Positions 4,701-27,945 of a stretch of 64,000 nucleotides of DNA are shown one piece after another. A program made the translations under genes and the position numbers. Positions within the stretch are counted from its first letter, which is position 1, and each line of letters starts with the position of its first letter. The stretch lies in IMG/VR virus record IMGVR_UViG_2706795428_000001, positions 46,838 through 110,837 of that record; one strand, 5' to 3'. Source of the stretch: a virus. The notes under the pieces are model-generated. The model had not been told where the DNA came from, ran no database searches, and saw only the letters and a program-made list of their open reading frames with translations.

Positions 4701-4954
4701 TTCGATACCTCATACAATTCTTCATTAACAATTTTCACAACTCTTCCAGAGTAATTTAATTTACCTTCTCTCGAAGAATATCCATCTGGAGCAAGGTAAA
4801 CATCTTTTCCGTCAATTCTTGAAACTGTTCGAACTTCGATGTAAGGAGCTCTTCCGCTCATTGCTGCTCGAAAGACTTTATCACCAGGAGCAAGTGTTCG
4901 TCGGAAAAGATCTTTACCATCATTGGCTTGATTTCGTTTCCAATCTCCACTCAT
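4697..4954 (-). CDS. hypothetical protein (SH3-like beta barrel possible)
   Basis: ORF, coupled to the kinase stop. Confidence 0.5.
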   Translation of the reverse strand: MSGDWKRNQANDGKDLFRRTLAPGDKVFRAAMSGRAPYIEVRTVSRIDGKDVYLAPDGYSSREGKLNYSGRVVKIVNEELYEVSK

Positions 4955-5496
4955 TTCAGTTTACTTCTCATAAGTTCGACAATTTTCTGAGTATCTTCTG
5001 ATGTCTCATGTTCAACTGTTTCAACATAATCCATCAAAACGAAATTTTTGCAAATGCCTGCAATTTTTGTTTCGCGACCATTGAGAAACTGTTCTGATTG
5101 ATCGTCATTACGTTTCTTATGACGAATTGAAATTGTTCTTGGGTCAGCTACTACATTCAGAATTGTAAAATCAGTATCATCAAGTTCAGCAATCCATTCG
5201 AACATGCTCTGATTTCCGATGCGATCTCCTTCAAAGAAGAAATTGACATCAGAAGCTTCTTCGATGAATTCTTTACAATGAGGTTGAGTGTTCAATCCAA
5301 GACGATCTGTCCCCGGGAACACTTCACCATCTTCATACTTGCCAATAATAACAGCATTCAACTTCTTGGAATAATGATGAGCAACATTCTTTCGAGGAAC
5401 AAGTTCCCAATCATCAGTAAGTTTCATGAACTCTTTAAAGATGGTTGATTTCCCGACAGCAGGAAGGCCGATCATTGCTACGATTGCTCTACTCAT
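4951..5496 (-). CDS. P-loop kinase of the type found in phage thymidine-hypermodification loci
   Basis: Walker A GLPAVGKST, GTDRL and FFEGDR motifs; likely start MSRAIV at 5496 (ATGA overlap). Confidence 0.75.
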   Translation of the reverse strand: MSRAIVAMIGLPAVGKSTIFKEFMKLTDDWELVPRKNVAHHYSKKLNAVIIGKYEDGEVFPGTDRLGLNTQPHCKEFIEEASDVNFFFEGDRIGNQSMFEWIAELDDTDFTILNVVADPRTISIRHKKRNDDQSEQFLNGRETKIAGICKNFVLMDYVETVEHETSEDTQKIVELMRSKLK

Positions 5497-5885
5497 AGTG
5501 CACCATATTGTGAACGTGTAGAAGGTCGAATATTTTTCAATTGAACAACAGTATGTTTCTGGGAAGTTGCAAGATTTACACCATCCCATTCAACAAGAGC
5601 CTTTTCTTCTCCTTGGAGAATGAATAGAATTTTGCCACGTTTTCCTGGAGTTGTCAGAGAATCGACGATATTATTGACTTTGAAATCATACTTGATTTCT
5701 TTTACTGGAATATTATTGTCGAAGAAAGCAACATCAGAAATACCTGCGAATTGAACGTAAGTTCGAGTTGGACCAGTAGAATACTTGCCACTTTTCTCAA
5801 TTCGAACAACTTTTGCTTCGACAACTACGATGTCACCTTCTTTTGCATCACCAACTGTGAGCTGTTTCAGACCTTGAATTGCCAT
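5493..5885 (-). CDS. hypothetical protein
   Basis: ORF in the operon. Confidence 0.55.
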   Translation of the reverse strand: MAIQGLKQLTVGDAKEGDIVVVEAKVVRIEKSGKYSTGPTRTYVQFAGISDVAFFDNNIPVKEIKYDFKVNNIVDSLTTPGKRGKILFILQGEEKALVEWDGVNLATSQKHTVVQLKNIRPSTRSQYGAL

Positions 5886-6070
5886 TACCGAATAGTCTCC
5901 AAAATTTGAAGTGTTTTTAGAATTTCTTTTTGTTCCTCTTGAAGATATTCAAGAGATAGAAGAGCATTCTCATATTGTCGTTTTAAGGTATCGATTGACA
6001 TCTTTGTATCAGTAATAACCTTTCGATTACATTCAAGTCGACCATGAAGAACTTTGGCTACTTTATCCAT
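5885..6070 (-). CDS. small coiled-coil hypothetical protein
   Basis: TAATG-coupled ORF. Confidence 0.5.
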   Translation of the reverse strand: MDKVAKVLHGRLECNRKVITDTKMSIDTLKRQYENALLSLEYLQEEQKEILKTLQILETIR

Positions 6071-6315
6071 TACCGAAATTTCTCCATAGCAGTTTCAAAT
6101 TCAACTCGTTGAGCACGAGCTTTCGCAACATCTTCAAGAAGTCCCGCAAGTTCTTTATTTTTCTTGACGAGTTCGTTGCGAAGTTCTACTTCAACTTCAT
6201 TGAGATTTCGAAGACAGTCTTCGAGGTATTGTTTAATTTTCTTTGGAAATACTCGATATTGACCAATTGTTGTAAGATTTTCTTGCATAATACTATCGTT
6301 CTCCTTGTCGAACAT
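6070..6315 (-). CDS. small coiled-coil hypothetical protein
   Basis: TAATG-coupled ORF. Confidence 0.5.
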   Translation of the reverse strand: MFDKENDSIMQENLTTIGQYRVFPKKIKQYLEDCLRNLNEVEVELRNELVKKNKELAGLLEDVAKARAQRVEFETAMEKFR

Positions 6316-6682
6316 TTTCTAATTCGATTTCATTTTTGTGATTGATTCGAATGACTTTGATTTCAGGAACCATCTTTTCGATGATCTCTTCCTGAATTGG
6401 ATCGTCTTCGAAGTGATACACTACGTCATATCCATTTCGAAGTAAATAGATAATTGTATTTGCCTTATGAATTCCTGAAGATTCTCGAGTCTTTTTGTGA
6501 AATGGAATAGGATTGAAAAATACTCGATTATGAATGCCTCTTTCATGAAGCATTTCAAGAGTTTCATCTGCTTCTTCGAAAGATCTTCCAGTGATGATGA
6601 AGTCATTTGGTCTTGGTGTGCATCCTGGTAGATCTTCTCCAAGGAAAATCACACCATCGATATCCCATGTTGCGATTTTCAT
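6293..6682 (-). CDS. capless HAD-superfamily phosphatase
   Basis: Motif I WDIDGV, motif II IITGR, motif III K, motif IV FEDD. Confidence 0.8.
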   Translation of the reverse strand: MKIATWDIDGVIFLGEDLPGCTPRPNDFIITGRSFEEADETLEMLHERGIHNRVFFNPIPFHKKTRESSGIHKANTIIYLLRNGYDVVYHFEDDPIQEEIIEKMVPEIKVIRINHKNEIELENVRQGER

Positions 6683-6799
6683 TCTGTATCTTCTTCCGAT
6701 TCAGGGTATTCTTCAATCATCTTTTCGACAATTTCACGAGGATACCAATCTCCTTTGAACCATCGGTAGTCCTCATATTCTTTTACTGGTTTGGACATT

Positions 6800-7267
6800 T
6801 TATGAACTCCAGCTGTATTCGTTTTCACCGTCTTTACTGATTCCTACATCTGGAGAAAGAAATGGAATTTTCTTGAAATTTGAAAAGACGTGTGAGAATT
6901 TTTCACCGAATGGAGTAAATCTAAACTGTTCTCCACCAGCAACCCATACATCTTCAAAAAGAACTACCCAAAGAGAATCATAAAAATTTTGCCACCAATT
7001 ATCATCTGGTTGTTCAGAAGGATCTTTACTCCATTCATAGTTATCGAAATAATCCGATTTGAAAACGATATATGCAGTCAACCCAGATTCGTTTTCAATG
7101 TAGACTCTTGTAACATTTTGGCTACAGAATCCCACGTTGAATTCATGATCAAATGTTAGAATATCATCAATTTCTGGATGATGCCAATGATGATGAATAT
7201 TATCGAACCAATAATCAATCAGTAATGGTTCGATATCGATGTTAATAAAACCTTCTGGAAATTTCAA
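6800..7267 (-). CDS. hypothetical protein (Trp/Asp/His-rich)
   Basis: ORF with SD GGAG upstream of a TTG start. Confidence 0.5.
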   Translation of the reverse strand: MKFPEGFINIDIEPLLIDYWFDNIHHHWHHPEIDDILTFDHEFNVGFCSQNVTRVYIENESGLTAYIVFKSDYFDNYEWSKDPSEQPDDNWWQNFYDSLWVVLFEDVWVAGGEQFRFTPFGEKFSHVFSNFKKIPFLSPDVGISKDGENEYSWSS

Positions 7268-7286
7268 AATTATCTCCTAATAGAGG

Positions 7287-7329
7287 GTTTCTGGTCTGTT
7301 TGCGGAAAATATGGAAACAGACCAGAAAC
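7287..7329. repeat. perfect 15-bp inverted repeat downstream of the INO1 gene
   Basis: GTTTCTGGTCTGTTT-N13-AAACAGACCAGAAAC; no U-tract on either side. Confidence 0.85.
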
Positions 7330-7370
7330 GATGCGATTCAAATCACAAAGAATTAAAGTTGTTACTAAAC

Positions 7371-8552
7371 TCAGAGAATGAATGTAGAAACAAATTTACC
7401 ATCTTCGCGTCGAACATAATCGTGAGGAATTTCACGTCGGGCTAGAATTTCACATTCTGTTCGAGCATCCTTTGTGAACATATCAACCGGAGGAGTTTTT
7501 TTCGTTGCAGCGCTGGGACCAACAATAGGACCAACAATACCAATTTCTTGAGCAACTTTCAAGAAACGGATAGCATCAATGGCGACCCCCGCAGAATTGG
7601 GACTATCAATACATGAAAGATCGGCAGTAAATTCAAAAGGCGCTCTACCAAAGATCGTCCCTTTGATAAGCCAATGAGCTCGTTTATTATCCTTTAGTGC
7701 TGGGAAATATTTTGCTGGACCTGCAGCAATTGTATTTGGTTTGGTTTCTTTACCAACCAAATCATTCTGTTTACGAATTACATTTTCTTTTGAAATTTTC
7801 TTCGAAGCTAGCCTATCAGGATTTTGCATTTGCTTGAAATCCATGTTGCCTCCAACATTATCCTGATAATGGACATCAATATCTGCTCCTCTTGCTAGGA
7901 AACATTCTTGTAGAACAGCAGAAATAATACTTGCTCCAATTGTTGAACGGACATCATCTCCAATAATAGTAACATTATTATCGGCAAATTTCTTTGCCCA
8001 TACCTTATCGGAAGCAATGAAACATGGAATACAGTTTACAACGTTTACATTTGCATTTAGACAAACATTCATCCAAAATTCTGTAGCATCTTGAGAGCCG
8101 ACAGGAAGATAGTTCATTAAAATATCGACTTGATTGTCTCGTAGATATTGAGCAAAATATTCAACATTCGCATCAACATCTTGTTCTACTGGAACAAACA
8201 TTTCTGAATCATTTACATCTGTCCCCCAAACTGGTGTATCTACACCATCAAGACGAGGACCTTGTTGAACAATAGGAAATTGTTTTTCAAGCTTAGAAAT
8301 ATTGTAAAGATCAATTGTATTATTCGGGAGTGAATGTAGAGCGACATTTAGAGGTTTACCAACTTTTCGTTGATCAACATCAAAGGCTGCAACAAATTCA
8401 ACGTTTTCAGGAGTATATCCTCCGATATTATCCATCATCAAATTCATTGTATCAAAATCAAATGCTCCTGCTTTAAATCCTTCGATACCTTGAACAAGAG
8501 CCGATGCACAATTTCCACACCCCACTAGAGCTACGCGAATTTTCTTAACCAT
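7371..8552 (-). CDS. ino1: L-myo-inositol-1-phosphate synthase (bacterial/archaeal type)
   Basis: Rossmann motif VGCGNCAS, FVAAFDVD..KVG, NYLPVGSQ.A, IIGDDVRSTIGA, GGNMDF, SKKISK, DSPNSAG. Confidence 0.9.
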   Translation of the reverse strand: MVKKIRVALVGCGNCASALVQGIEGFKAGAFDFDTMNLMMDNIGGYTPENVEFVAAFDVDQRKVGKPLNVALHSLPNNTIDLYNISKLEKQFPIVQQGPRLDGVDTPVWGTDVNDSEMFVPVEQDVDANVEYFAQYLRDNQVDILMNYLPVGSQDATEFWMNVCLNANVNVVNCIPCFIASDKVWAKKFADNNVTIIGDDVRSTIGASIISAVLQECFLARGADIDVHYQDNVGGNMDFKQMQNPDRLASKKISKENVIRKQNDLVGKETKPNTIAAGPAKYFPALKDNKRAHWLIKGTIFGRAPFEFTADLSCIDSPNSAGVAIDAIRFLKVAQEIGIVGPIVGPSAATKKTPPVDMFTKDARTECEILARREIPHDYVRREDGKFVSTFIL

Positions 8553-8645
8553 TACCTTAAAGTTCCTTTGTTATTTCAGTTGTTTCGGGAAACATTTCCC
8601 AGGCAGATTGATCCGGAATTGGAAGTAGCTGCCGAAAGAAGAAAA

Positions 8646-8674
8646 GAGTTTACCTCAAAGATTGAAGAAAGTAA
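8646..8674 (-). promoter_or_regulatory. early-type sigma70-like promoter for ino1
   Basis: Minus strand TTTACT-N17-TAAACT, followed by an ~85-nt leader with GGCAG/CTGCC and GGGAA/TTCCC stems. Confidence 0.6.
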
Positions 8675-8680
8675 ACTCTC

Positions 8681-9592
8681 CTAGAACAATTTAGAAAGAT
8701 CAGAAATCGGATCTTCAATATCTGGATGTTCCTGAAAATATTCTTTCCAAGAAACACGATCAAATGGTCGAATCTTTGAAATCGAAGTGATAGATTTCAA
8801 TTTGACTTCAGTCATTCCAGTATGCTTGACAAGTTTCGGTTCAGAGCAATACTTTCGAACGAGCTCGTCTTTTGCATAGACTTCTTCAGCAACATTCATC
8901 ATGAAAGCATTTCGATCATCTCCACCACGATCACCAGAAGATTGCATTCCTCCTGGATTCATTCCAGTGGAAGTTTTGAATCCTCCCCAATGATAGATAA
9001 CAATTCCTCCAGCTTTGTCGATGTAACGGCAAGTTCTCACAATGTCGTCCAAATGAGCAGTATAGATCTTGACAAAGTCAGGATCGTTTCTTGCACCCCA
9101 TGATCCACCAGGGAGATTGTATGGTCTGAATTCTTTCCAAGGTTTTCCTTGAAGATAGAAATCATTTTTGTAATAAGAGAATGAAAATGCTGTATTCAAT
9201 CCGAGTTCGTCAAGAGTCTTGAATCCGTCTTGAATGTATGCTTCAAGATTTGTAGATTTTGCGATGAAATTTGTTTTTGATGGAGTAGGATTGAACTCAA
9301 AAAATTCTTCAAGATCATCATCTAAAAAGAAAATTTTCTGATTGATTGGAAAGAAATCAGAAATGAAATGAACGATTTCTTTCCCGCCTTTTACTCCAAC
9401 AACAATCTCTTTATATGGATTGTCCCCCAGTGATTCTCGATATTCTTTCTTTTCTTCTTCATTCGCAACAAAGATGTAAAGCTTTTCAGAAAGATCGATA
9501 TGTTGTTTCGAGAGCATTGTGTAAGTTTTATCTCGAAACTGCATAGCTCGTTGATAAGATCTTACGGCAATAACATAATCATCAATATTCAT
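8681..9592 (-). CDS. TET/JBP-associated glycosyltransferase (TAGT/GREB1-like, GT-A fold)
   Basis: IAVRSYQRA N-terminus, FFLDDDL (DxD), C-terminal GGMQS..R; ATGA-coupled to the upstream aGPT-PPlase. Confidence 0.75.
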   Translation of the reverse strand: MNIDDYVIAVRSYQRAMQFRDKTYTMLSKQHIDLSEKLYIFVANEEEKKEYRESLGDNPYKEIVVGVKGGKEIVHFISDFFPINQKIFFLDDDLEEFFEFNPTPSKTNFIAKSTNLEAYIQDGFKTLDELGLNTAFSFSYYKNDFYLQGKPWKEFRPYNLPGGSWGARNDPDFVKIYTAHLDDIVRTCRYIDKAGGIVIYHWGGFKTSTGMNPGGMQSSGDRGGDDRNAFMMNVAEEVYAKDELVRKYCSEPKLVKHTGMTEVKLKSITSISKIRPFDRVSWKEYFQEHPDIEDPISDLSKLF

Positions 9593-10818
9593 AATACTTT
9601 GAACCATTTGTCTGTTTCTTGAAGTTCTTTTTGGAAATCAGATGATGTCGGAACAACCAATCCATCATCTTCCCAAATCTCTTTCACTTTATAATCAAAA
9701 GGATTCTCAAGTAAAGTCTCGAAACCATTTGGCATGTCTGGAAAAAGTTCATGCATATTCATAAGTTCGCCAGTGACCCCAAAGACTGAATCATACCACG
9801 AAGGAAAAACTGCACCTTTGATCAATCCTGGTTGATTTCTCAAAGCGCTTCTAAACGGCTTCCAGTCAATTTCGGGCCAATGTTCACGATAGTAAAGATA
9901 TCTTGATGTAGCATCACTCGAAGCATGCCCAGGCATTTCTCCTGAAGACCCATCAGGGGCAAACATTCGTTTGTACTGACAATAGATCGATTCTTTTCTG
10001 AATGAATCAATTCTGAAACCGGAGAATTCTTCTGCGATTGAAGTATATTCTAAAAGAGCGTCTTTAGCCCATTCAACATCTTTCTGAACAACTTGATAAT
10101 CTCCATACTTTCCAATCATCTTTTCAGGTTGATTTGTAAGAGCACAAAGACCATTCCAAATTGATCCAAGAGATGAATCGTTATTTGGAGAATATCCATC
10201 CAACATAATATCTTCTGGATCGATTGGAAGTTCAAGCAAATCATGAAGACATTGCATTAGAAGCCATCCAGTCATTCGACCGAATTTATGAAGTGTCTGA
10301 ATTTCTCTATAAAGAAGCCAGAAATTTTCTCTTTGACTTGACCCCACAAGGATTGAATCGAATTTATCTTTGAAAGAACTTTTTCCAAGCCAATTCTTGA
10401 CACTCTGAACTTGGCTAACCCAATGACCTTTGTTGTATCGAGCATCTGTTCCGTAAGTTGTTCTTTTCCAATTATTCGCATGCCATTTTTCCAATTCATT
10501 CATATTGATTGCATGAAAGTCTGGAAAGGTTTCAGTATATGCAAAAGCTTGAGGAGTTCTGTAAGTCATTCCAAAACAGAATGCAAACCATGCCTTTTGT
10601 TCAAAGTCATAATCTTTACAGAGATACTTGTAGTAATGAATATGATCCAGGTCATGCGTCAGGACTCTCCAATTGAAATATCGATTGAAAAGTTCTTGAC
10701 GTTTGCCTGGAGATTTCCATTCTTGAGTTGATTCTTCAATTCCAAAGAATCGTTTGTCCGCCTCTTGACTTGCTTTGTATTGCAGAAGCTTTTCAGAAAG
10801 TTTTGATTGTTTGGCCAT
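9589..10818 (-). CDS. aGPT-PPlase clade-2-like (amino acid:DNA transferase family) hypermodification enzyme
   Basis: AWFAFCFGMTYR, FGRMTGWLLMQCL (HhH-like) and ESIYCQYKRMF motifs. Confidence 0.75.
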   Translation of the reverse strand: MAKQSKLSEKLLQYKASQEADKRFFGIEESTQEWKSPGKRQELFNRYFNWRVLTHDLDHIHYYKYLCKDYDFEQKAWFAFCFGMTYRTPQAFAYTETFPDFHAINMNELEKWHANNWKRTTYGTDARYNKGHWVSQVQSVKNWLGKSSFKDKFDSILVGSSQRENFWLLYREIQTLHKFGRMTGWLLMQCLHDLLELPIDPEDIMLDGYSPNNDSSLGSIWNGLCALTNQPEKMIGKYGDYQVVQKDVEWAKDALLEYTSIAEEFSGFRIDSFRKESIYCQYKRMFAPDGSSGEMPGHASSDATSRYLYYREHWPEIDWKPFRSALRNQPGLIKGAVFPSWYDSVFGVTGELMNMHELFPDMPNGFETLLENPFDYKVKEIWEDDGLVVPTSSDFQKELQETDKWFKVL

Positions 10819-11125
10819 TCATTTCTCCATCAAAGTAATGCAAATACTTTTTACCTTTTGAAGATATATGCCAAGTTGTAGTATAACAATGAAAAGTTTG
10901 CCGCATTCTTTTAGAATAGAAAGTCTTTCCAGTGTAATGTTTCTTCTGGTATACATATGGTTTCATAAATCCGAGATATCCGGCAACCGAATTACGAGGA
11001 ACATTCCACCAACCAAGAAGATCTTCTAATACTTGCGAAATCTGTTTAGAAGAAAGATTTACATTTAAATGTTTAGCCGCAAGTAGAACTCTTAGAATTT
11101 GTCTTTGATTGTTATTCATTGTCAA
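10793..11125 (-). CDS. small basic protein, possible winged HTH
   Basis: Helical pattern LSSKQISQVLEDLL...RNSVAGYL then beta hairpin. Confidence 0.4.
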   Translation of the reverse strand: MTMNNNQRQILRVLLAAKHLNVNLSSKQISQVLEDLLGWWNVPRNSVAGYLGFMKPYVYQKKHYTGKTFYSKRMRQTFHCYTTTWHISSKGKKYLHYFDGEMNGQTIKTF

Positions 11126-11649
11126 TCAATTGCAGGAATTGGAGAAACAATCTTTTTAGCAGAATACTCAACTGGAACAGTGAATTGCTTTTCAAGAATT
11201 TGATATTTCGGCATTTGAGGATCTTGCCACATTGCAACAGTTGTTTTTGGAATTTTTGGGCGATCATCTTTACCAATACCACGAATTGCGTAAGTAAAAA
11301 GAACGAATGCATTCCATGCAACAGCAATCATGTGATGTGAACCGGTCTCGACATCATAGTCCTCGCCAGATTTCCATGCCTGAAGATGTCGTTCTAGAGA
11401 AGCACAACATTTTCCCCAGTCCATCCCTCTTTCCCAGTTACGGTCGGCATACTTTTTGGCGCCAATTTCGAAATGTCTACCGAGAGCCAACATTGCTTCT
11501 GGAGGAATGAGGTCCATTCGCGGTTTACCTTCATTATAACGAAGGGCTCCGTTATCTACTACAGTAGCGTTCTGATTCCTAGACATAATCACTTTATCTT
11601 CAATATCAACATCTTTTTCTTCATCATCGTAATATTTGTATGCGCTCAT
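11122..11649 (-). CDS. dATP/dGTP diphosphohydrolase domain protein (DUF5664)
   Basis: RYNEGKPRMDLIP...GAKKYADRNWERG...ASLERHL...HHMIAVAWNA. Confidence 0.85.
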   Translation of the reverse strand: MSAYKYYDDEEKDVDIEDKVIMSRNQNATVVDNGALRYNEGKPRMDLIPPEAMLALGRHFEIGAKKYADRNWERGMDWGKCCASLERHLQAWKSGEDYDVETGSHHMIAVAWNAFVLFTYAIRGIGKDDRPKIPKTTVAMWQDPQMPKYQILEKQFTVPVEYSAKKIVSPIPAID

Positions 11650-11827
11650 TTCTACCTCGTATATTTGATCATATCGTTAATTGCGATTTCCATTGAAGAT
11701 TCAGAGGATAGTGGTGAAATCCAGAAAGAGTTATCATCATTTAGACCAAAGTCATGAATGATCTTATCTCCTCTCATTCTATCAAGGAAATCCCAAGCAT
11801 CATCCAGAAATTGTTTTTCTACGATGA

Positions 11828-12070
11828 TCATGAAATAATTTCTCGTACAGTCAATTCTTTGCTGAAAAACTTTTTACGAGAGACTTTCATATAATACGTA
11901 GCATATGTATTCGCAGAATGAATTAATTCGGAATCATATACCCAAAATCGTTTTGAATGCTTCCATTTTAATTTACCTGCTGCTAATTTGACAGCATTTT
12001 CTTTTGTTTCTGCTTCAAATGTTAATGTAGCTTCCGGATAATAATCAGGAAATACTTTAAACTGCTTCAT
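11828..12070 (-). CDS. hypothetical protein
   Basis: Coupled ORF. Confidence 0.5.
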   Translation of the reverse strand: MKQFKVFPDYYPEATLTFEAETKENAVKLAAGKLKWKHSKRFWVYDSELIHSANTYATYYMKVSRKKFFSKELTVREIIS

Positions 12071-12516
12071 TCACCACACCCATTTTGTTTATCAAATTGC
12101 CCCCAATGAACAAATCCTTGAGGGCAAGCAAAACCCCATTCTCGAATTCTTGGTCCAGTCACGAAAATGGTTGTGCAAGGTTCTCGATCAGGGTATCCGA
12201 CCATTGAACCATCATTTTGTTTGACCCACTTCGTGAGAAGTTGAACACGATGCCAAGCTTCTCCGAAACGGAAATAACAATTTCCTCGTTTTCGAATGAA
12301 TTTTCCTTTTGGGGTATGTTCAATATAATTGCCTTTGATTAGAATAGAAAGGCAAAACAACCACGGATGACTATGAAGCGCTCTATCTTCATCTGAACGC
12401 AGAAACTTATGAAGATAGATGTTAAAGAAAGGATTTCGGGGAATGACCCACCACCTTAACAGGTACGGGTCTTCATTTCCTCCAATGACTACATCTGGTT
12501 TTCGTTTGAATACCAT
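12067..12516 (-). CDS. cupin-fold (cysteine-dioxygenase-like) protein
   Basis: LHSHPW...GNYIE...WHRV metal-binding pattern, TIFVTGP..REWGF; TGATG-coupled to the TET/JBP gene. Confidence 0.7.
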   Translation of the reverse strand: MVFKRKPDVVIGGNEDPYLLRWWVIPRNPFFNIYLHKFLRSDEDRALHSHPWLFCLSILIKGNYIEHTPKGKFIRKRGNCYFRFGEAWHRVQLLTKWVKQNDGSMVGYPDREPCTTIFVTGPRIREWGFACPQGFVHWGQFDKQNGCGE

Positions 12517-13844
12517 CAGAACAACGTAGCTCCTGTTTGAGGGTATGCTTCTGGATGATATTGAAGAACGACATCTTTTCCAAGTTTTGATTCTAGGTAA
12601 TCATACCATGCTTGTTCAGTAAACATTCCTGGCGTGACGCCATTGAACAAATTTCGCCCTTCCGAAAGAATTGGATCTTTCTTTCGTTCTTCTACATACT
12701 GAAATTTTACTTGATTGTATTCGTAAGAACCGGTTCCAATCAAATCTTCACGGAAATACGCAACAACACTACAACGATTTCCAATGATTGGAGTATTTCC
12801 GTGAATGATATTATGATTTGCAATCAGAAGAAGATCACCAGGACGAATATTAACGCATGCTCGATATTCTGGAAATACTAGATATCCGCCTTCAAAATCT
12901 GATTCACCATCAGTCAGTACTGAAAGATTGGAAAATCCTGCTTCCAGATCACCATCATCCAAATGGTATCCAGTGCGGAAATTTTTGTTCACAGTAATTG
13001 TGCTGAATACTGTTCCGGGAACAACGAATTCAGGAGCAACTTTCTTACATGCTTCATTTTGATTATTCCATCGTTTTGGAAGGAACTCTTTGAAAGCATT
13101 AGAAAGTTTCTGAAGATACGGAAAAGCTTGTTCAAACTCTTCAGGGTTATTTCGATTGAATGCTGCAAGACGAGCATAAGGGTATCGTGGATAAGGTGGT
13201 TGCGAACCGGCAACTCCAGAGTTCACAGGAGAAGCATAAGTCGAGATTGAAATATATTTTTTCTCTACAAATTCTGCTTCTTTCTTGCGTTCTTCTACAG
13301 AAAGTTTCCGTACTCTTTCCAACCATTCAGAGAATTTGAAATTATCATTTCGAGTTGCATGATACAGCCACATGCATCCTCTTGAACTGTTTTTGTCGCC
13401 ATCTTTGTATTTCTCAAAGATTTCTTCGATTGGATCAAATCCTGGAAGAGGTTGAGCACCTTTTTTGAATAGATTGATAATATCCCATTCTTTTGCAGTA
13501 ACCCAATCTCTATTGCCGACTTTTTCGACTTTTGGTCCTGCAGCCAAGCCACGATTATTTGAAGGGACATCGGCTGCGCGATTTAATCCTCGATATGCGC
13601 CAAGTTGTTCTTCTTTTGTGAAGTAATTTTTCCTGAAAACCAAACCAATTCTTGCTTCATCAATCGCTTGGGGACATGACGCACAATCTTGATTACATTC
13701 AAGCATATCTGAAACAAAGCAATCAGGCTTCGTATAGAAATTGGTATCAGAATCAATAATCACATCATAATGCGAATCTTCCGCAAACTGCCCCAGAAGA
13801 TGCTGACAATCAATCTTTTCTTTAGCAACAATAACATTAACCAT
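12516..13844 (-). CDS. TET/JBP-family 2OG-Fe(II) dioxygenase
   Basis: TITVNKNFRTGYHLD (HxD), GGYLVFPEY, IHGNTPI (distal His), RCSVVAYFRE (2OG-binding Arg). Confidence 0.85.
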   Translation of the reverse strand: MVNVIVAKEKIDCQHLLGQFAEDSHYDVIIDSDTNFYTKPDCFVSDMLECNQDCASCPQAIDEARIGLVFRKNYFTKEEQLGAYRGLNRAADVPSNNRGLAAGPKVEKVGNRDWVTAKEWDIINLFKKGAQPLPGFDPIEEIFEKYKDGDKNSSRGCMWLYHATRNDNFKFSEWLERVRKLSVEERKKEAEFVEKKYISISTYASPVNSGVAGSQPPYPRYPYARLAAFNRNNPEEFEQAFPYLQKLSNAFKEFLPKRWNNQNEACKKVAPEFVVPGTVFSTITVNKNFRTGYHLDDGDLEAGFSNLSVLTDGESDFEGGYLVFPEYRACVNIRPGDLLLIANHNIIHGNTPIIGNRCSVVAYFREDLIGTGSYEYNQVKFQYVEERKKDPILSEGRNLFNGVTPGMFTEQAWYDYLESKLGKDVVLQYHPEAYPQTGATLF

Positions 13845-14067
13845 TCATTATTTCCTTTTGCTTACTGATTAAATCCTAACAGTAAGTAGCAATTTCATTT
13901 TTCGGTGATTACAATCCAGAGAAACAAAGGCCAAAGAAGCCCCATGAAAAGAATTGGGCCGAATCGAGGATAATTCAAACCTTGTTGACGAAAATTCACT
14001 GAAAGATGAATCAACATCAGAGAAAGAATATACCAACCTACAAAGTATACTGTCAGGGTCGCACCAA

Positions 14068-14298
14068 TCACGATTTAATCATCCATTCATTGATGCGATC
14101 TTGGAGTTCATAGAGTTTAATTTCGAAGAACTTCAGAGTAAAATATACTACTCCAAAAGGAGTTTGGAGTAAAGTGAAAAATCCAATCAATACTGTGAAA
14201 ATTGTGAAAGAACATGCAGCAAAGAAAGTCTTTATTGCAAGATTCGTTTCCTTTTCAGAATATGTTTCAATCGACATTATAATCTCTTGTAAATTCAA
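14068..14298 (-). CDS. small membrane protein
   Basis: Hydrophobic central segment. Confidence 0.4.
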   Translation of the reverse strand: MNLQEIIMSIETYSEKETNLAIKTFFAACSFTIFTVLIGFFTLLQTPFGVVYFTLKFFEIKLYELQDRINEWMIKS

Positions 14299-14608
14299 TG
14301 TTGACGCTAGTATTTTGGTTTAGATGCAAAATTTCTCGTAATCTTTTTTCAAGAAACTCATATTCATTTCGTTCAGAGCAATATGAATAAAGAGCAAAAG
14401 CCCATGGATCTTTTTCGAACATTTTCTCAAGACTTTCACGGGTATGTTTCTCGTTTTTCTTAAACCAGTAATCAGTTTTGTTTCTACCAATATTCAGTTT
14501 AATGTTTTCTTCTTGCCTTTTCTTTCGCCATTTTTCAATTTGGTCTAGTCTTTTAGAAATAAGATCGGCGGCGAAAGAGCACGGAAGATTATACCAAACT
14601 CTTGTCAT
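14267..14608 (-). CDS. hypothetical protein
   Basis: ATGA-coupled ORF. Confidence 0.5.
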   Translation of the reverse strand: MTRVWYNLPCSFAADLISKRLDQIEKWRKKRQEENIKLNIGRNKTDYWFKKNEKHTRESLEKMFEKDPWAFALYSYCSERNEYEFLEKRLREILHLNQNTSVNIEFTRDYNVD

Positions 14609-15075
14609 GAAATTGGATCCTGGGTCACCAAAACCATTTCAATATCAGGCTTGAAGTAATTTGGCCCTTTCAGAACTTTGCCATCTTCACGATATACTGG
14701 TTTACCATCTTCACCAAGTTTGCTCATGTTCGAAGAGTGAACTTCTGAAAACACTGAATCAAGATTGATACCATATTCTACAGCAGTACCATGGTTGAAA
14801 TATTCAATATCTGCTAGAGCATCAGCGATTTCAACAATATCTGGAGCACGAACACGATCTAGGATTGATGCGACTTTCCATGCAGCCTGAATTAAATGAA
14901 TACCGGCAGGATTGTAACCCTGAGCATCTAAAAGTTCACAGAACTCTTCGATAATGAAACCATTGCGAAGATTTTCTCGTTGTACTGAAAGATTGTTTGG
15001 ATTAGGAATAGTTCCGATTGGTTGATTGTAAGTCTGATGAAACTGAAGAACTTTTTCAAAATTTGTCTTTGCCAT
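14605..15075 (-). CDS. MazG-like (all-alpha) NTP pyrophosphohydrolase
   Basis: IEEFCEL...EIADALADIEY...VHSSNMSK...GKVLKGPNY; likely start MAKTN at 15075. Confidence 0.85.
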   Translation of the reverse strand: MAKTNFEKVLQFHQTYNQPIGTIPNPNNLSVQRENLRNGFIIEEFCELLDAQGYNPAGIHLIQAAWKVASILDRVRAPDIVEIADALADIEYFNHGTAVEYGINLDSVFSEVHSSNMSKLGEDGKPVYREDGKVLKGPNYFKPDIEMVLVTQDPIS

Positions 15076-15076
15076 T

Positions 15077-15496
15077 TTAATTCTTTCCCACAACATATTT
15101 GTGAATAATTTGGAATTCTTTTTTCTCTTTCGAGGGGACAACCTTGATTGAAGAAATTGGAGCAAGGTCTTTGAATACTTCTGTATTCTTGACAGTGACA
15201 AGACCCCATTCATTTAGAAGCCATGCAATTGTATTTCGACGTTTACGATCTTCTTCACTGAAAGAAGTCGGTTTGCGGTCAAGCATGAAACATTCTTTAA
15301 AATGGAGTAGCCAATAACGACCACGCTTGAAAAGAATAACACATGAAGGATAAAGAGTCTTTGGGGTTGTTTTTGAAGAACTAATTCCAATTCGTTCAAG
15401 CGTTTCCTTGACGATTAGGAAATCTTCGGGTTTAGAGAGTTCAATTTCGATAAATGATTCTAATAGTTCTTCAACTGATTTATTTTGATTTGTCAT
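15077..15496 (-). CDS. regA: translational repressor RegA
   Basis: DFLIVKETLERIGI...LYPSCVILFKRGRYWLLHFKE; T4 synteny after gp62. Confidence 0.92.
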   Translation of the reverse strand: MTNQNKSVEELLESFIEIELSKPEDFLIVKETLERIGISSSKTTPKTLYPSCVILFKRGRYWLLHFKECFMLDRKPTSFSEEDRKRRNTIAWLLNEWGLVTVKNTEVFKDLAPISSIKVVPSKEKKEFQIIHKYVVGKN

Positions 15497-15507: not shown

Positions 15508-15936
15508 TTAAACTCCACCTTGATCAAGGTTTACTTCATTACGCAACTGTTGCATTTGTTCTTCTGTAAGAACATTCAAAAGAGCTGCTGCTTTCTCATT
15601 TGAATATTTGAAAACTTTCTTGATAATTTCAATATCAGGATTTTCCATTCCCTTCCACCATTTACTCCATCGTTTCCTTGGGCGAATTGAAAGTCTCAAG
15701 AAATCAAATTGAGCATTCTTTGGAAGGTTTGGATATTGATTTACTTCATTAGCATAGAGCACCGTATCAGAGAAATAACTCAAACCTCTATTGATTATGA
15801 ATGGTGCATATGCTTTCTCGACTTCTTCTTTCGACGGATAAGTCTTGAAAAGATTTTCTTTCTCTACACTATTAATTGCTGAAATGAAAGAGAAAGGATC
15901 AAGTTTCTTTTGTTTGGTTGGAGCATCTTCACTCAA
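15508..15936 (-). CDS. 62: clamp loader small subunit (T4 gp62)
   Basis: PFIINRGLSYFSDTVLYANEVN...QFDFL...RKRWSKW; TTG start inferred. Confidence 0.88.
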   Translation of the reverse strand: MSEDAPTKQKKLDPFSFISAINSVEKENLFKTYPSKEEVEKAYAPFIINRGLSYFSDTVLYANEVNQYPNLPKNAQFDFLRLSIRPRKRWSKWWKGMENPDIEIIKKVFKYSNEKAAALLNVLTEEQMQQLRNEVNLDQGGV

Positions 15937-15940
15937 ACCA

Positions 15941-16915
15941 TTACTCCTTGAACTGGCAATCCGCAAGAACTTCAACTAGAAAACTTGCGCGATTTATCTG
16001 AGTATCAGCAACTCGAGTTTCCATATCCTGATATTTTCCAAGGAATAGAATCATCTGGGGAACAGATGAAGGCACAAGATAATCGTTGACAGTATCATAG
16101 AATTTACGATAAAAGTCTACAGAAGTAATATCTTCGTTTTCACCAATCCAACGGCGAATTGCATTGAATTGTTTCGGACCTTCGCGGAGTAGTTTGATAA
16201 GATCCTTGAAACGTTCTTCACCAAAGTCGACAAGAATTCCCGAATCGATTTGGCCAGTTTTGGAATATGCTTGAAGAGTATTCAGAGTCTTTCGAAAGTC
16301 TGGATAACATTTTGCAATGATGGCCATGACTGCTTCCTTTTGATAAGGAATAGATTCTTCTTCAAGAATTGCATAGACTCGTTTTGCAAATTTCATTCCA
16401 AGATCAGCAAGTTCTTTCTTGGTGAAATTGAACTCAATTGCTTGACCAAATCGCGATTGAAGTGGTTCAATGACTTTTGATTTGTAGTTACATGTAGCAA
16501 CGAAGCCGCAGTTTGCCGCGTAAGCTTCCATGAAGTTGCGAAGAGATTTCTGAGCCATTTCTGACATACCATCAATCTCATCGATAAGAACCATCTTTCG
16601 ATGGCCTTCACTCATCAGAGAAACAGTCGAAGCGAAATTTTGAATCTCTGTTCGAACAGTATCAATATTTCTATCAAGACTTGCGTTAATTTCAAGAAAA
16701 TCGATATTCAGCTGATTGAAAAGAGCCTTGAGAATTGTGGTTTTACCCACACCAGCCGTACCCGAAATCAGAATGTTACTGTCGATTTTACCATCAATAA
16801 CATATGCCTGAAAGATTTTCTTGAAACGCTCGGGTAGAATACAAGACTCTACAGTATTTGGTCTATATTTTTCAACAAAGGCCACATGTCTTGGATCACT
16901 CACAAGTGATGTCAT
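15941..16915 (-). CDS. 44: clamp loader large subunit (T4 gp44)
   Basis: VEKYRP, GTAGVGKTT, IDEID, PLQSR. Confidence 0.95.
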   Translation of the reverse strand: MTSLVSDPRHVAFVEKYRPNTVESCILPERFKKIFQAYVIDGKIDSNILISGTAGVGKTTILKALFNQLNIDFLEINASLDRNIDTVRTEIQNFASTVSLMSEGHRKMVLIDEIDGMSEMAQKSLRNFMEAYAANCGFVATCNYKSKVIEPLQSRFGQAIEFNFTKKELADLGMKFAKRVYAILEEESIPYQKEAVMAIIAKCYPDFRKTLNTLQAYSKTGQIDSGILVDFGEERFKDLIKLLREGPKQFNAIRRWIGENEDITSVDFYRKFYDTVNDYLVPSSVPQMILFLGKYQDMETRVADTQINRASFLVEVLADCQFKE

Positions 16916-16984
16916 ACTTTACTCCAATATTTTAGAAAGACACTTAGAATACTTTAAAGAGGAAAGAAAGTAAAGCCTCAACTG

Positions 16985-17287
16985 CTATTCAGTAAGCAGT
17001 TGAGGACCAGACTTAAGTTCTGCAAGTTCAGTTTCAAGACATTGAATTTTTTTGCGAAGTTCAATTTCTTTTTCGAGTTGTTCTACTCGTTGTTCTAGAT
17101 CGGTTCGCCATTGTTCATTTTCATCGGAAATACAATCGGGCTGAGATTTTTCCCGATCGAGTTCTTTTGCAATACGAATCATGTCGACGATTTTACGAGC
17201 AGCGGGATAATCGGATTCTGGAATAGTCCAAGGAACCGGCCAAAGATTATCACGACCGTACCCTGTAACTGCTGAAACGATACACAT
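16985..17287 (-). CDS. hypothetical protein inserted between gp45 and gp44
   Basis: ORF coupled to the gp45 stop. Confidence 0.55.
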   Translation of the reverse strand: MCIVSAVTGYGRDNLWPVPWTIPESDYPAARKIVDMIRIAKELDREKSQPDCISDENEQWRTDLEQRVEQLEKEIELRKKIQCLETELAELKSGPQLLTE

Positions 17288-17952
17288 TATGAAATAACCG
17301 AATTAGCCTCGACGGCGATGAGATAGTAAGCACGATCAGAAACCCAACGCGAAAGAGCGAGTTCACCCTTTTTACCAATTGAGACGGTATAATCGTCTGC
17401 CAGAACTTTCAGATTTTCAGTCTTGAAAATGACTTTGAAATTTAGATCAGTTTCACCAACATCAAATTGATAGTTGTTACCATCAGTTTCCTTCGTCGAA
17501 AGAGCACGAGCAGTGATTTTACCATTTTCGCCAACGATAGCAACTTCTGGAACACCCAGAACACTACCGGCTTTTTGAATTTTCGCAAGAACAGCTGAAG
17601 TGATTGTGACTTCAACATCGACTTTCGGGAATTCAATTTCTTTCTTCGGGGGAGCAATAATCAGTTTTGAATCGCCATAGCGATAATTGACTCGTTCTTC
17701 TTTCGAAGAAACAGTGACGTAAGAATCATTGAAAGTCAGTTCAGGTTCATCCATGAGAGAAAGAACATTCAGGAACTGGCCAAGATCATAGATTGCAAAT
17801 TCACGATCGAAGTCATCTTGAACATCGACCTTTGCAATGATAGTCTTTTGAGGTGAAACTGTTTCCAGCTTCTTACCTTCTTTGAAAATAATGCCGTTGT
17901 TGATTGAGGCAAAGCTCTTAAGAACAGCAATAGTATCAGCGCTAATTTTCAT
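17287..17952 (-). CDS. 45: sliding clamp (T4 gp45)
   Basis: MKISADTIAVLKSFASINNGI...FAIYDLGQFL. Confidence 0.95.
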   Translation of the reverse strand: MKISADTIAVLKSFASINNGIIFKEGKKLETVSPQKTIIAKVDVQDDFDREFAIYDLGQFLNVLSLMDEPELTFNDSYVTVSSKEERVNYRYGDSKLIIAPPKKEIEFPKVDVEVTITSAVLAKIQKAGSVLGVPEVAIVGENGKITARALSTKETDGNNYQFDVGETDLNFKVIFKTENLKVLADDYTVSIGKKGELALSRWVSDRAYYLIAVEANSVIS

Positions 17953-21342: not shown

Positions 21343-23052
21343 TTATTCTTCCGCGAATCTCGAAAAGTTTTTGACTTTTTCGATTTTTATGGTATGTTCA
21401 AATTTGTCCATCATAGATTCTCTATGGGAAATAACAAAGACGTGAGTTTTTTCAAGTGAATGAAGAATCTTTACAAGATCATCAATTCCTTCATTATCAA
21501 CTCCACCATCTGCAACTTCATCCAAAATGAGAAGATTTGTTGCAGAAGAATTTCTCATCGTTGCAACATATCGCCAAGCAAAGATAAGAGCCATGTTGAT
21601 TCTAGCTTTCTCTCCTTCTGAGAAAGACTCATAAGAAAAATTTTCTCTGAAACGGCTTTTCAAGGTTTCCTTGAATGTTTCGTCGATTTCAAATTGAACA
21701 TTGAGATCGAGAATATTCAGATATTTGTTGATTGCTCCATTAATAATTGGAATGTATTGCTTGATGATCTTGGATTTAATCCCACCATCTTTGAGAAGAA
21801 CTGAAGCAACATCGTAAGTTGCTTTTTGATTTACGAGTTCTTCTCTACGTTTATCTAGTAGTTCTTTGGAGGAATAAAGTTCTTCTAATTTACTTTGTTC
21901 TACTTCTTCTGTAAAGGACTTTGTTTCAGAATTCAATTCTTTTTCAAGTTGAACAATAAACTTTTGAAACCCATTTATTGTCGAATTGTAGTCTGAAATT
22001 GTTCTAGTCAATCCATTAATTTCAGCCAAAATATTTTGAATTTCTAGAGAACGATTTGAAAGAACTGTCAGATCTTCAGAAAGTTTCTCGAGACCATTTT
22101 CGATTTCTTGAATTTTCTTTTCTTTTTTCGAAACAGAATCACATTTGAAAGTTTCATCAATATCTTGTTTACATGTTGGACAATGATCATAATCATGAAA
22201 GAATTTCAATTCTTTCTTTAGTTTTGATTTTCTTTCTCTTAGTTGTGCTTCGACTGTAGAATATTGTTTGATTTTCTTTGAAACGGTCGATTGGTCTTGA
22301 ATTGAATTCTGAAGATTGTCAATTTGTTTTTGAGTTGTTTGAATTTTCTTTTGAAATTCTTCAATTGAAAGAGACGTTTCTTCAATTTTTTCTCGAATTG
22401 AATCTTTTTCGACTTTAGCAGCGTTCTTGGAATTTTGAATGAATTGTTTCTGAAGACGAATCTTTTCTTCAATCAAATCAGATTCATAGCGAATTTCTGA
22501 AAGAGCATTTTTATTTTCGTCGACACGATCTCGAAGAAGTCGATTCATTTTCGAAAATACTTGAAGATCAAGCAAATCTTCAATAATTTCTCTTCGTCCT
22601 CCTGAACCAAGTTTCATGAAAGGAACAAAAGTCGCTGTCCCAATGATGACAATCTGACAAAATGATTTGTGATTCATTCGAAGAATTCGCTTCTCCAAAT
22701 GTTCTTGATACTCAAACGTTCCAGGATTTTTAAGTAGGACACCATTTTCCCAAATCTCAAAGATTTCGGGTGCCATGCCTCGACGAACAAGATATTCGTT
22801 TTTACCAATCGAAAATGTTACTTCAACTTTACAATCTTTTTTGTTAATTGAATTGATCAACTGACCTTTGTTGATATTTCGAAATGGTTTCTTATACAAC
22901 ACAAATGAAAGAGGATCTAATAGACCACCAGATTTGTTTGAACCATTTCTACCATGAATAAGAGTAGTCGCGTGAGCATCAAGTTGATAGCGCATTGATT
23001 TTTCACCAATGCTCATGAAATTCCATGTTTCTAACGTCTTGAATACAATCAT
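21343..23052 (-). CDS. 46: recombination endonuclease ATPase subunit (T4 gp46, SbcC/Rad50-like)
   Basis: GRNGSNKS, coiled coil with CPTC zinc hook, FSEGE, LILDE, ISH. Confidence 0.95.
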   Translation of the reverse strand: MIVFKTLETWNFMSIGEKSMRYQLDAHATTLIHGRNGSNKSGGLLDPLSFVLYKKPFRNINKGQLINSINKKDCKVEVTFSIGKNEYLVRRGMAPEIFEIWENGVLLKNPGTFEYQEHLEKRILRMNHKSFCQIVIIGTATFVPFMKLGSGGRREIIEDLLDLQVFSKMNRLLRDRVDENKNALSEIRYESDLIEEKIRLQKQFIQNSKNAAKVEKDSIREKIEETSLSIEEFQKKIQTTQKQIDNLQNSIQDQSTVSKKIKQYSTVEAQLRERKSKLKKELKFFHDYDHCPTCKQDIDETFKCDSVSKKEKKIQEIENGLEKLSEDLTVLSNRSLEIQNILAEINGLTRTISDYNSTINGFQKFIVQLEKELNSETKSFTEEVEQSKLEELYSSKELLDKRREELVNQKATYDVASVLLKDGGIKSKIIKQYIPIINGAINKYLNILDLNVQFEIDETFKETLKSRFRENFSYESFSEGEKARINMALIFAWRYVATMRNSSATNLLILDEVADGGVDNEGIDDLVKILHSLEKTHVFVISHRESMMDKFEHTIKIEKVKNFSRFAEE

Positions 23053-24138
23053 GCTTGTTCGACTACTCTTACTGCTTCTTCGTATAATGATTTCATAAGA
23101 TTAACGACTGGTTCTTTTTGAATATCAATATCCAATCCGTCAACATACTTGTCCAGAATAGTCAAAGTATCCTCGACAGTTCCTTGAGTTTCTTCAAATT
23201 CTGAATAAAGGTTTAAAGACTCATCTACAATTTGTAAATTGACTACATCACTCTTTTCAAGTTTATCGAATACTCGATCAAACCAGAAAGGTTTTGTTTT
23301 ATTCACCACCACAAGTTTTACGTATCCACCAGCAATACTTGAAGTATCAATAGAATTTAGGAGGTCATCAAGAGTATTATATTTCAAATCATCATAATAT
23401 ACTTTATGAAACATCTTGAATGGATTGTGAATGAATTCAAGTTTTCGAGTATCTGTATCTAGAATATGAAATCCTTTTTGGTCTCCATAATCTGCCCAAG
23501 TAATTTCATATTGAGTGCCGAGGTAATGAATGTTATCTCTAGAACTCTTATGATGATAATGTCCAGATAGAACCATATCAAATTTTTGGAACAGTTTTTC
23601 GTCCATTCCATGTTCCATGAAATTACCGCGATACATCTCATACCCAGACAATTCAAGATGCGATACAAGAATTGATGCTCGAGATTTATCCACTACTTTC
23701 ATAAAATCTGCATAATGACTTGATGCAATCCAAGGCAGCAGAAGAATTTTTGTTCCATCAATTTCAATTTCTTTTGGTTCTGTATCAACAATCATCATAC
23801 CCTTTGTTTGACGACCAGAAGAATAAAGAGCCTGAATTGAATTAATTTCATTGGAACGGAAAAATGTGGAATCATGATTCCCAATTATAGCATAGGTAGA
23901 AACTCCAAGATTTTCGAGTTCTTTGAAAAATCTTTCATGGGCTTCTTGAGCAATACGTAATTCGACATACTTTCTGATGTCAAAAATATCGCCAGCCAAA
24001 ATCACATGTTTGATATTATGTTCTTTTAGATATGGAAAGAAAATTTGTTCATGAAATTTATAGAAGTATTCATGAAATACTCTAGAACCAGATCTTGTTC
24101 CGAAAATGAATATCGTTCAGGATAGCAACTTTAGCCAT
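23049..24138 (-). CDS. 47: recombination endonuclease nuclease subunit (T4 gp47, Mre11-like); +1 frameshift near the 5' end
   Basis: SD AAGGAG then ATG at 24138 gives MAKVAILNDIH; frame broken at the A-run 24103-24106; continues FGTRSG...LAGDIFD, GNHD, SHLEL, SGHYH. Confidence 0.9.
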
Positions 24139-27504: not shown

Positions 27505-27704
27505 GCGGCCCTCGTGTCGATGAATTGCGTGGTGGAACCGATGACGCGGGTCAGGGCGATGACCGTGAAGTCGTAGATGACCCCCTCACCCTTAATAAGG
27601 GTGAGGGGATAACCCAAAGATTTCAGCGAAGCTGGAGACCCAACAAGACCCAGAGATTTTGGTAAAGCAAGCATTAAAACTCCCAAAAGAAATTTGTAAA
27701 ACAT
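27501..27704 (-). CDS. chimeric small ORF spanning the AT/GC junction
   Basis: AT-rich hydrophobic N-half joined to a GC-rich C-half; stop overlaps the ATG of the beta-helix gene. Confidence 0.5.
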   Translation of the reverse strand: MFYKFLLGVLMLALPKSLGLVGSPASLKSLGYPLTLIKGEGVIYDFTVIALTRVIGSTTQFIDTRAA

Positions 27705-27714
27705 TCATCAAAAA

Positions 27715-27722
27715 TATTTATA
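27715..27722 (-). promoter_or_regulatory. T4-type late promoter TATAAATA
   Basis: Exact TATAAATA on the minus strand just upstream of the chimeric ORF. Confidence 0.65.
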
Positions 27723-27879
27723 ACGTATTAATTCTTCACGTTTTATCAAAATATGACTTTATTCTTTAAAGAATTGAAGGTCTTATTTTATTAAATTTCA
27801 TGAATTTCTTCAAAATGACGATTAGCTCATAAACCCTTACTCAAACATATTTATTTGTCCGAAAAATCACGTTTAGGGA

Positions 27880-27908: not shown

Positions 27909-27945
27909 TCATCATAAGGTTTGAACGAAGCAAGGAGAAATTCAA

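Follow-up and report, generated by a model that had tools for sequence, protein, structure and literature searches.

The window considered here, by which we mean the whole stretch of 64,000 nucleotides that was analyzed, covers bases 46838-110837 of the IMG/VR virus record IMGVR_UViG_2706795428_000001, a genome of 155,997 bp that is 97% complete (CheckV) and contains 37.8% G+C. The source virus is an uncultivated T4-like phage. T4-type baseplate genes are present elsewhere in its genome, and a block at 15508-17952, immediately upstream of the cassette that is our subject, holds the clamp-loader genes gp44 and gp62 and the gp45 gene for the sliding clamp. This cassette (4951-13844, minus strand) contains genes for a dioxygenase of the TET/JBP family, an AADT homolog, a P-loop kinase, a glycosyltransferase (GT), a homolog of inositol-3-phosphate synthase (MIPS) and a small HAD-type phosphatase, along with further open reading frames (ORFs; Table 1). 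All are on the same strand and tightly packed, and the stops and starts of several overlap. Profile and fold searches recovered, on the minus strand and where an earlier note on this DNA had placed them, all four of the gene families it had picked out by reading the sequence: the dioxygenase, the glycosyltransferase, a gene like aGPT-PPlase-2, and the kinase. The cassette likely specifies a pathway in which thymine is oxidized within DNA to 5-hydroxymethyluracil (5hmU), phosphorylated, and then substituted by the AADT. No match to the region was found among cultured phages by megablast. Related loci from other contigs, designated below by L-numbers, were compared with the window; the search for them required an alignment of TET proteins as query, a single TET protein having returned none. 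Scans for T4 late-promoter motifs, sigma-70 promoters and terminators gave results no better than chance, and we therefore claim no operon structure.

Table 1. Features in and beside the cassette, numbered from the first letter of the window
Feature	Position	Strand	Basis
TET/JBP-family 5-methylpyrimidine dioxygenase, 442 aa	12516..13844	-	PF12851, motifs, fold
AADT/aGPT-Pplase2 homolog, long subfamily, 409 aa	9589..10818	-	PF18724
P-loop kinase, candidate 5-hmdU DNA kinase	4951..5589	-	phrog_800, Walker A
GT-A fold glycosyltransferase, divergent TAGT relative, 308 aa	8681..9607	-	TAGT sub-threshold, phrog_842, fold
Inositol-3-phosphate synthase (MIPS) homolog, 393 aa	7371..8552	-	PF01658, 1GR0 alignment
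Small HAD-type phosphatase, 129 aa	6293..6682	-	HAD motifs, phrog_415
gp45-type sliding clamp	17287..17952	-	PF09116 + PF02916
Clamp loader genes	15508-16915
All-alpha NTP pyrophosphohydrolase, MazZ-like dGTP_diPhyd_N, 175 aa	11122..11649	-	PF18909 116.6 bits, phrog_801
Cupin-fold protein, 149 aa	12067..12516	-	phrog_4786 E 3e-55
His-rich protein, 155 aa	6800..7267	-	phrog_25544 (unknown function)

The dioxygenase matches the family model PF12851 at 74.3 bits (cut-off 34.9) over residues 219-366, approximately the span of its catalytic domain. The residues of the iron triad, H294-x-D296 and H348, and the 2-oxoglutarate-binding R357, are invariant in an alignment of 37 homologs, which bears out the earlier description of the TET/JBP motifs (HxD, distal H, Arg) as intact. 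The AF2 model of the protein (pLDDT 87.5) finds its best Foldseek matches in the PDB with human TET2, NgTET1 (from Naegleria), CcTet and CMD1 (E 4e-10 to 1e-7); its double-stranded beta-helix is thus closest to those of DNA-base dioxygenases. Ahead of the catalytic domain, members of the family possess a conserved N-terminal domain of ~220 residues (1-218 in the window protein) with near-invariant cysteines (C42, C50, C54 and C57) and an invariant NRG..GP motif; the cysteine segment is missing in two homologs. Human TET2, which aligns over the whole of the window protein, likewise has a Cys-rich domain ahead of its catalytic fold. Full-length homologs number at least 1537, and occur mostly on T4-like contigs of 160-200 kb. 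In the closest relative, L004, an Nmad5 gene lies immediately upstream of the TET gene (L004:3406-3981); the equivalent position in the window is occupied only by small unassigned ORFs (13895-14608).

The AADT homolog scores 179.3 bits on PF18724 (cut-off 26.2), above the 159.6 bits of the validated M6 gp51 on the same model, and the family models uphold the first reading of this gene as they do that of the dioxygenase. It belongs to a long subfamily (401-412 aa), and is 72% identical to its homolog in L004 and 25-30% identical to the AADTs of L007 and of the GATase-type clusters L005 and L006. To judge from its sequence, the nucleophile used by the long subfamily may differ from a free amino acid. 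The kinase, also named in the earlier note, matches phrog_800 (E 8.6e-25) and has a Walker A motif, GLPAVGKST; the validated M6 gp54 matches the same region of the same PHROG profile (E 2e-39). Its true start is probably M32 (~4951-5496), which gives a protein of ~181 aa. Pairwise BLAST found no significant similarity of the window kinase to M6 gp54 or of the window AADT to M6 gp51, and family models were therefore used. As a protein query against a ViI-like phage, DLP_6 and C48C1 the kinase returned no match, in a search that had no positive control.

The substrate of such enzymes, 5hmU, could come from more than one source. The earlier note had seen neither a hydroxymethylase nor a C5-methyltransferase in the window, and the same is true of the whole genome. 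When the search was carried beyond the window, as that note had proposed, it brought out a canonical ThyA only, and no hydroxymethylase. PF00145, the model for C5-cytosine methylases, has no match in the genome at E ≤ 1, and ThyX has none either. There is a single gene of the thymidylate-synthase family (PF00303; genome positions 23015-23953, outside the window), and it scores 372.9 bits over the full model and passes both NF002497 (358 versus 327) and TIGR03284. As controls, T4 td, which is split by an intron, scores 214.6+83.3 bits, whereas four known hydroxymethylases score 54-78 bits: SPO1 gp29, a dUMP hydroxymethylase, 77.6; T4 gp42, a dCMP hydroxymethylase, 58.3; M6 gp58, 66; and the homolog of the ViI-like phage, 54. 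Because the gene scores like ThyA and far above the hydroxymethylases, we read it as a normal ThyA, with which the phage would make dTTP. The alternative in which a dUMP hydroxymethylase of the thymidylate-synthase type, encoded elsewhere, provides 5hmU ahead of replication and leaves the TET protein some other role has only this gene outside the window to draw on; the gene is the sole member of its family in the genome and is of the canonical kind, and the alternative is largely refuted. Three relatives that carry the same clade of TET (96-100% complete, 161-197 kb) have no gene of the thymidylate-synthase family and no C5-methylase.

A second alternative is that the TET protein acts on 5-methylcytosine (5mC), made by the host or by an unrecognized methylase, and that the kinase and AADT then act on 5-hydroxymethylcytosine. 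Characterized phage TETs of clades A and B do oxidize 5mC, and kinase action on 5-hydroxymethylcytosine has been suggested for some contigs (PMC8256090). Set against these precedents, PF00145 is unmatched not only in the window genome but also, at E ≤ 0.01, in five related records; AADTs and the 5-HMUDK kinases are known only to act on derivatives of thymine (PMC8989533); and a C5-methylase co-occurs with only ~6% of the mined pathways of the dioxygenases termed 5mYOX (PMC13229309). We consider this alternative very unlikely. With no C5-methylase, and a canonical ThyA as the only thymidylate-synthase gene, oxidation of thymine after replication, as the earlier note had suggested, is the best source of 5hmU, and these absences, along with the gene context, make thymine in DNA the most likely substrate of the window TET.

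A TET-started pathway is therefore our preferred reading, and a likely one. Ordinary dTTP would be made by ThyA, and the phage would replicate with thymine in its DNA. The TET/JBP protein would next oxidize thymine within the polymer to 5hmU; the P-loop kinase would phosphorylate the new hydroxyl; and the AADT homolog would bring about displacement of the phosphate by a nucleophile.

The neighborhoods of related TET genes were surveyed in 80 IMG/VR loci of the TET clade, in 31 of which the sequence continues for 5 kb or more downstream of TET. GATase, AADT and kinase genes occur downstream in 25 of these 31, and the clustering of TET with AADT and kinase is far beyond chance. In three others, a TAGT directly follows TET and there is neither AADT nor kinase, and in still other loci of the clade a GT-B glycosyltransferase is found downstream. 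A GT-B of ~442 aa, for example, stands directly after TET at L040:4325-5656 and L073:11297-12625, and in seven similar loci, its tail ending ...TLEDLFG, again with no kinase or AADT. In a maximum-likelihood tree the downstream modules swap between sister TETs: L040 (GT-B only) and L077 (TAGT only) are sisters with support of 100/100. This speaks for one TET product feeding either chemistry, and where TAGT or GT-B alone comes after TET the acceptor is presumably 5hmU-DNA. The window TET groups with those of L004 and L023 (100/97), and with that of L007 when it is added (100/99); the long-branch TET of L022 falls outside the clade formed by the window, L004 and L023. In the window and in L004, L022 and L023, TET is followed by one and the same module: AADT, a GT that overlaps AADT, the MIPS homolog, the small phosphatase and the kinase. 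The GT keeps its order beside AADT in all of five loci, and in four of the five is accompanied by MIPS and the HAD phosphatase.

The GT had been labeled a TAGT in the earlier note, and this holds at the level of the superfamily, to judge by its GT-A fold, its DDD motif and its homology to a TAGT of another phage locus, but not at the level of the Pfam family: on PF20691, the TAGT model, it scores 19.7 bits (E 8.5e-4, residues 13-134 only), below the cut-off of 27.5. It matches phrog_842 at E 5e-8. The top Foldseek matches of its AF2 model (pLDDT 88.6) are the GT-A enzymes POMGnT1, RmlT, TarP and TarS; the fold search was used because a profile of the GT family gave only marginal matches to PDB sequences. 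The DDD motif (residues 96-98) is invariant in the family. The protein is 28-33% identical to proteins of 266-269 aa that stand directly after TET in other phages; the one tested, from L039, passes PF20691 at 43.3 bits and is 33% identical to the window GT (E 1e-26). Only 15 homologs of the GT were found among 5.8 billion proteins, and the family is rare. In 12 of 14 loci inspected its gene stands beside that of TET, one of the 12 being on a probable eukaryotic-virus contig. Nucleotidyltransferases (CMP-KDO synthetase and IspD) were also among the fold matches; this identity is less likely, the N-terminal glycine-rich loop being absent and the DxD motif lying after strand 4. A distant homolog of the window GT lies beside a 303-aa TET at L108:8001-9716 (a JGI 3300032319 contig), together with genes for a RING-finger protein and a papain-like protease. 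The contig possibly derives from a eukaryotic giant virus, and the pairing of TET with GT may extend beyond phages.

The MIPS homolog matches PF01658 at 75.5 bits and aligns over its full length (residues 4-368) with Mycobacterium tuberculosis Ino1 (1GR0; E 1.6e-76), NAD and catalytic motifs included. In L004, L022 and L023 the HAD gene directly follows it. Four homologs share the HAD motifs DIDGV, ITGRS, K and EDD without variation, and the protein matches part (84-175 of 218) of the profile of the polynucleotide-kinase family phrog_415 at E 1e-14. From its sequence and setting it is probably an inositol-phosphate phosphatase. Together, MIPS and a phosphatase suffice to turn glucose-6-phosphate into free inositol. 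We propose that these two proteins would produce myo-inositol or a closely related cyclitol in the infected cell, and that this would serve as the group appended by AADT, or as part of it; the GT-A enzyme would add a sugar on DNA, with the appended group or 5hmU itself as the acceptor.

The earlier note suggested that oxidized thymine may be routed to two different hypermodifications, giving a mosaic of modified bases. On that account, some 5hmU would be glycosylated directly by the GT-A enzyme, much as in base J synthesis, and some would pass through kinase and AADT. The distribution of modules lends it substance: true TAGTs and GT-Bs occur alone, with no kinase or AADT, after TETs closely related to that of the window, and sister TETs pair with TAGT only, with GT-B only, or with AADT and kinase, the modules being exchanged between them. 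Loci in which a GT-A-like gene accompanies AADT and kinase recur in other lineages (L047/L059 and L105), and engineered phages with mixed thymidine modifications are viable (PMC8989533). The GT of the window, however, overlaps AADT by 19 nt, keeps its place beside AADT in the five loci mentioned, and is a diverged subfamily, longer than the stand-alone TAGTs and below the TAGT cut-off. MIPS and HAD, moreover, follow the GT in four of the five loci, and a GT that simply glucosylates 5hmU is hard to square with this. One sequential pathway accounts for the linkage of GT with AADT at least as well as two branches do, and the position of the GT inside a conserved AADT-GT-MIPS-HAD-kinase module suggests one composite product. 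The fixed order of AADT, GT, MIPS and HAD, and the divergence of the GT, lead us to favor, tentatively and at somewhat less than even odds, a single product built with cyclitol and sugar; two parallel products in the window phage are possible and appear more doubtful. Under either model, oxidation that is incomplete or confined to certain sequences would leave a mosaic in which modified and plain thymine are mixed. The locus L105:2271-12522 (Logan SRR32414321) carries two tandem TET paralogs of 446 aa and, after them, a GT of the window type, a GATase, a low-molecular-weight phosphatase, a true TAGT, an AADT and a kinase-like gene; in this richer mixed cassette, truly parallel branches are a good possibility.

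The GT, MIPS and HAD genes might, on the other hand, have no part in DNA modification, and form an auxiliary metabolic or cell-surface module, for inositol or a glycoconjugate, that merely happens to lie between AADT and kinase. Most GT-A enzymes use acceptors other than DNA, a complete route to free inositol would suit such a module, and a cyclitol on a DNA base is absent from the hypermodification literature examined. Against this stand the embedding of the genes between AADT and kinase in four independent contigs, the frequency with which the GT family adjoins TET, and a polymerase-like tail that the GT has in common with TET. We regard an auxiliary role as improbable, and return to the sequential pathway in considering these tails.

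The DNA polymerase of T4, gp43, ends in ASLDFLFG, and this C-terminal tail binds gp45. In the window phage an 840-aa ORF, by its size and tail probably the phage DNA polymerase, ends in ...ADLSSLFD, the GT in ...SDLSKLF and TET in ...GATLF. Of the 120 TET homologs listed, 109 end in [ST][LIF][DE]x[FLMW][FLMI], most commonly as SLEEFFG, and in at least 14 loci a polymerase-sized ORF (~830 aa) ending in SSLEDFFG adjoins a TET ending in NSLEGFF or SLEEFFG; the polymerase-sized ORF of L006 was confirmed as DNA_pol_B. In its strict form the tail occurs 120 times among 1020 ORFs of related loci. Its carriers are the polymerase, TET (67/79), a GNAT-like protein (17/23), TAGT and GT-B, with, as exceptions beyond these, one AADT and one 256-aa protein with a GNAT domain; among the same ORFs it is never found on kinase, GATase, gp44 or gp45. 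The tails of TET and GT are predicted to be disordered in the AF2 models. Both enzymes, it appears from these endings, probably ride the gp45 clamp by means of short tails that copy that of the DNA polymerase, and gp45 would be their docking partner.

Combined, these elements make up our most specific proposal: a cyclitol-bearing thymine, such as 5hmU etherified with inositol or a glycosyl-inositol, made after replication by clamp-docked enzymes with polymerase-mimicking tails, gp45 taking over in this T4-like clade the DNA-loading role that a ParB-like CTPase clamp has for the ParB-dependent thymine dioxygenases already described. We advance it as a speculation that may well prove wrong in one or other part. 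Several observations tell against it or against the pathway beneath it. The kinase falls outside the Pfam family PF18748 (HMUDK_HMUD1), which M6 gp54 matches at 65 bits, and scores just 13.6 bits on PF18751; homologs 40-49% identical to it pass the latter model at 36-40 bits. The MIPS homolog scores 291 bits on TIGR03450, under the equivalog cut-off of 638, and the MIPS family also contains a synthase of five-membered cyclitol phosphates (6K96). The tail of the window TET, GATLF, conforms to the motif only weakly, and a claimed interaction of the T4 alpha-glucosyltransferase (alpha-GT) with gp45 was not reproduced in a recent preprint. Lastly, a subset of ParB-less clade C1 enzymes is inactive in E. 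coli (PMC13229309). The window genome has no match to ParB_N (PF02195) at E ≤ 10, although ParBs associated with 5mYOX may be too divergent for Pfam, and none of L004-L007, L022 and L023 showed a ParB.

The premise of the earlier note that two paradigms are newly mixed at this locus is not supported by the literature. Contigs that combine TET_JBP, 5-HMUDK and AADT and lack a hydroxymethylase were described from metaviromes by Lee et al. (NAR 2021/22; Fig. 2, sequences 22-25; PMC8989533). As in the window, TET_JBP there replaces the dUMP hydroxymethylase beside kinase and AADT, and the authors likewise infer that thymine oxidation in situ feeds the hypermodification enzymes. The difference lies in the glycosyltransferase and inositol genes, which are unmentioned in that paper; in the window GT-A, MIPS and HAD lie between AADT and kinase. 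Phage thymine dioxygenases (5mYOX), found with kinases, AADTs and GTs, were subsequently reconstituted by O'Toole et al. (PNAS 2026; PMC13229309) and oxidize thymine in DNA, as we propose, post-replicatively, for the TET/JBP protein of the window. Two clades are distinguished among them: C1 depends on ParB, and its genes are linked to those of GATases, P-loop kinases and AADTs; C2 is independent of ParB and linked to GTs. Compared by gene content, the window and the 25 related loci show the C1 linkage to P-loop kinase and AADT, but in the window genome no co-located ParB-like activator was detected. The 5mYOX enzymes require a C-terminal extension for activity (PMC13229309); the window TET has, besides its conserved Cys-containing N-terminal domain, the polymerase-like C-terminal tail. 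Neither the replicative sliding clamp nor inositol is discussed in PMC13229309, and in the hypermodification literature examined, this paper and PMC8989533 included, inositol synthesis is not tied to hypermodification clusters.

Other known systems resemble the window in part. Phages ViI (5-NeOmdU) and M6 (5-NedU) also employ kinase and then AADT chemistry on 5hmU in DNA, and M6 has an AADT, gp51, in the same Pfam family as that of the window and a kinase, gp54, in the same PHROG. They differ in making 5hmdU before replication, with the thymidylate-synthase-like hydroxymethylases used above as controls (54-66 bits on PF00303), and in possessing tailoring enzymes dependent on pyridoxal phosphate or of the radical-SAM type, which the window lacks. 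In kinetoplastids, base J is made by JBP1 and JBP2, members of the TET/JBP family that hydroxylate thymine in DNA, and by JGT, a glycosyltransferase that then acts on the product; there is no kinase or AADT step and there are no cyclitol genes. JBPs bind base J through a domain of their own, and are not known to carry a clamp-type tail. The loci of the window clade that have TET and TAGT only look, by analogy, like a direct phage counterpart of base J synthesis. Cytosine hypermodification by phage C5-methylase, TET and GT (Burke et al., PNAS 2021; PMC8256090) resembles the window in that phage GTs use the hydroxymethyl group made by TET, and some of the contigs encode P-loop kinases. These pathways differ in needing a neighboring C5-methylase, of which the window genome has none, and act on cytosines in GpC. 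One enzyme from that study, TET89, oxidizes thymine (PMC8256090).

The cupin-fold ORF overlaps the TET stop by one base, was assigned to this fold by an Atlas structure search that returned phage-only clusters, and has homologs near TET in L004 and L023. The dGTP_diPhyd_N pyrophosphohydrolase is within the same cluster in these two loci. TET is flanked by two unlike all-alpha NTP pyrophosphohydrolases, this MazZ-like one at 11122-11649 and one of the PRA-PH/MazG type at 14605-15213. For the 155-aa His-rich ORF, phrog_25544 was the sole match, and Pfam, Atlas and fold searches gave no usable lead. Elsewhere in the window, the 26001-28000 bin has a G+C content of 54.6%, compared with ~36% in the rest; it holds a 506-aa ORF on the minus strand (25984-27504), with a 282-aa ORF on the plus strand (25086-25934) just upstream.

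Since the route from TET to kinase to AADT is already known, the locus opens no new field. Although the kind of pathway has been published, two features are new relative to the literature examined, namely an inositol module tied to the cassette, and polymerase-like tails on TET and glycosyltransferases. Hypermodification of its DNA decides whether or not a phage evades restriction and the nucleases of CRISPR systems, and the enzymes responsible serve as tools for labeling DNA. The conserved module of AADT, GT-A, MIPS, HAD phosphatase and kinase points to a thymine that contains a cyclitol or sugar and has gone unreported; a cyclitol-bearing thymine, if that is what is made, would be a chemical class not so far reported for DNA. 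GT and kinase/AADT chemistry under one TET offers a natural case for telling serial from parallel action of such modules. And the presence of the tails on TET, TAGT, GT-B and GNAT proteins, and not on kinase or GATase, suggests a way in which post-replicative modification may be linked to the replication fork, and a reason why some enzymes of this kind show no activity in E. coli when produced on their own.

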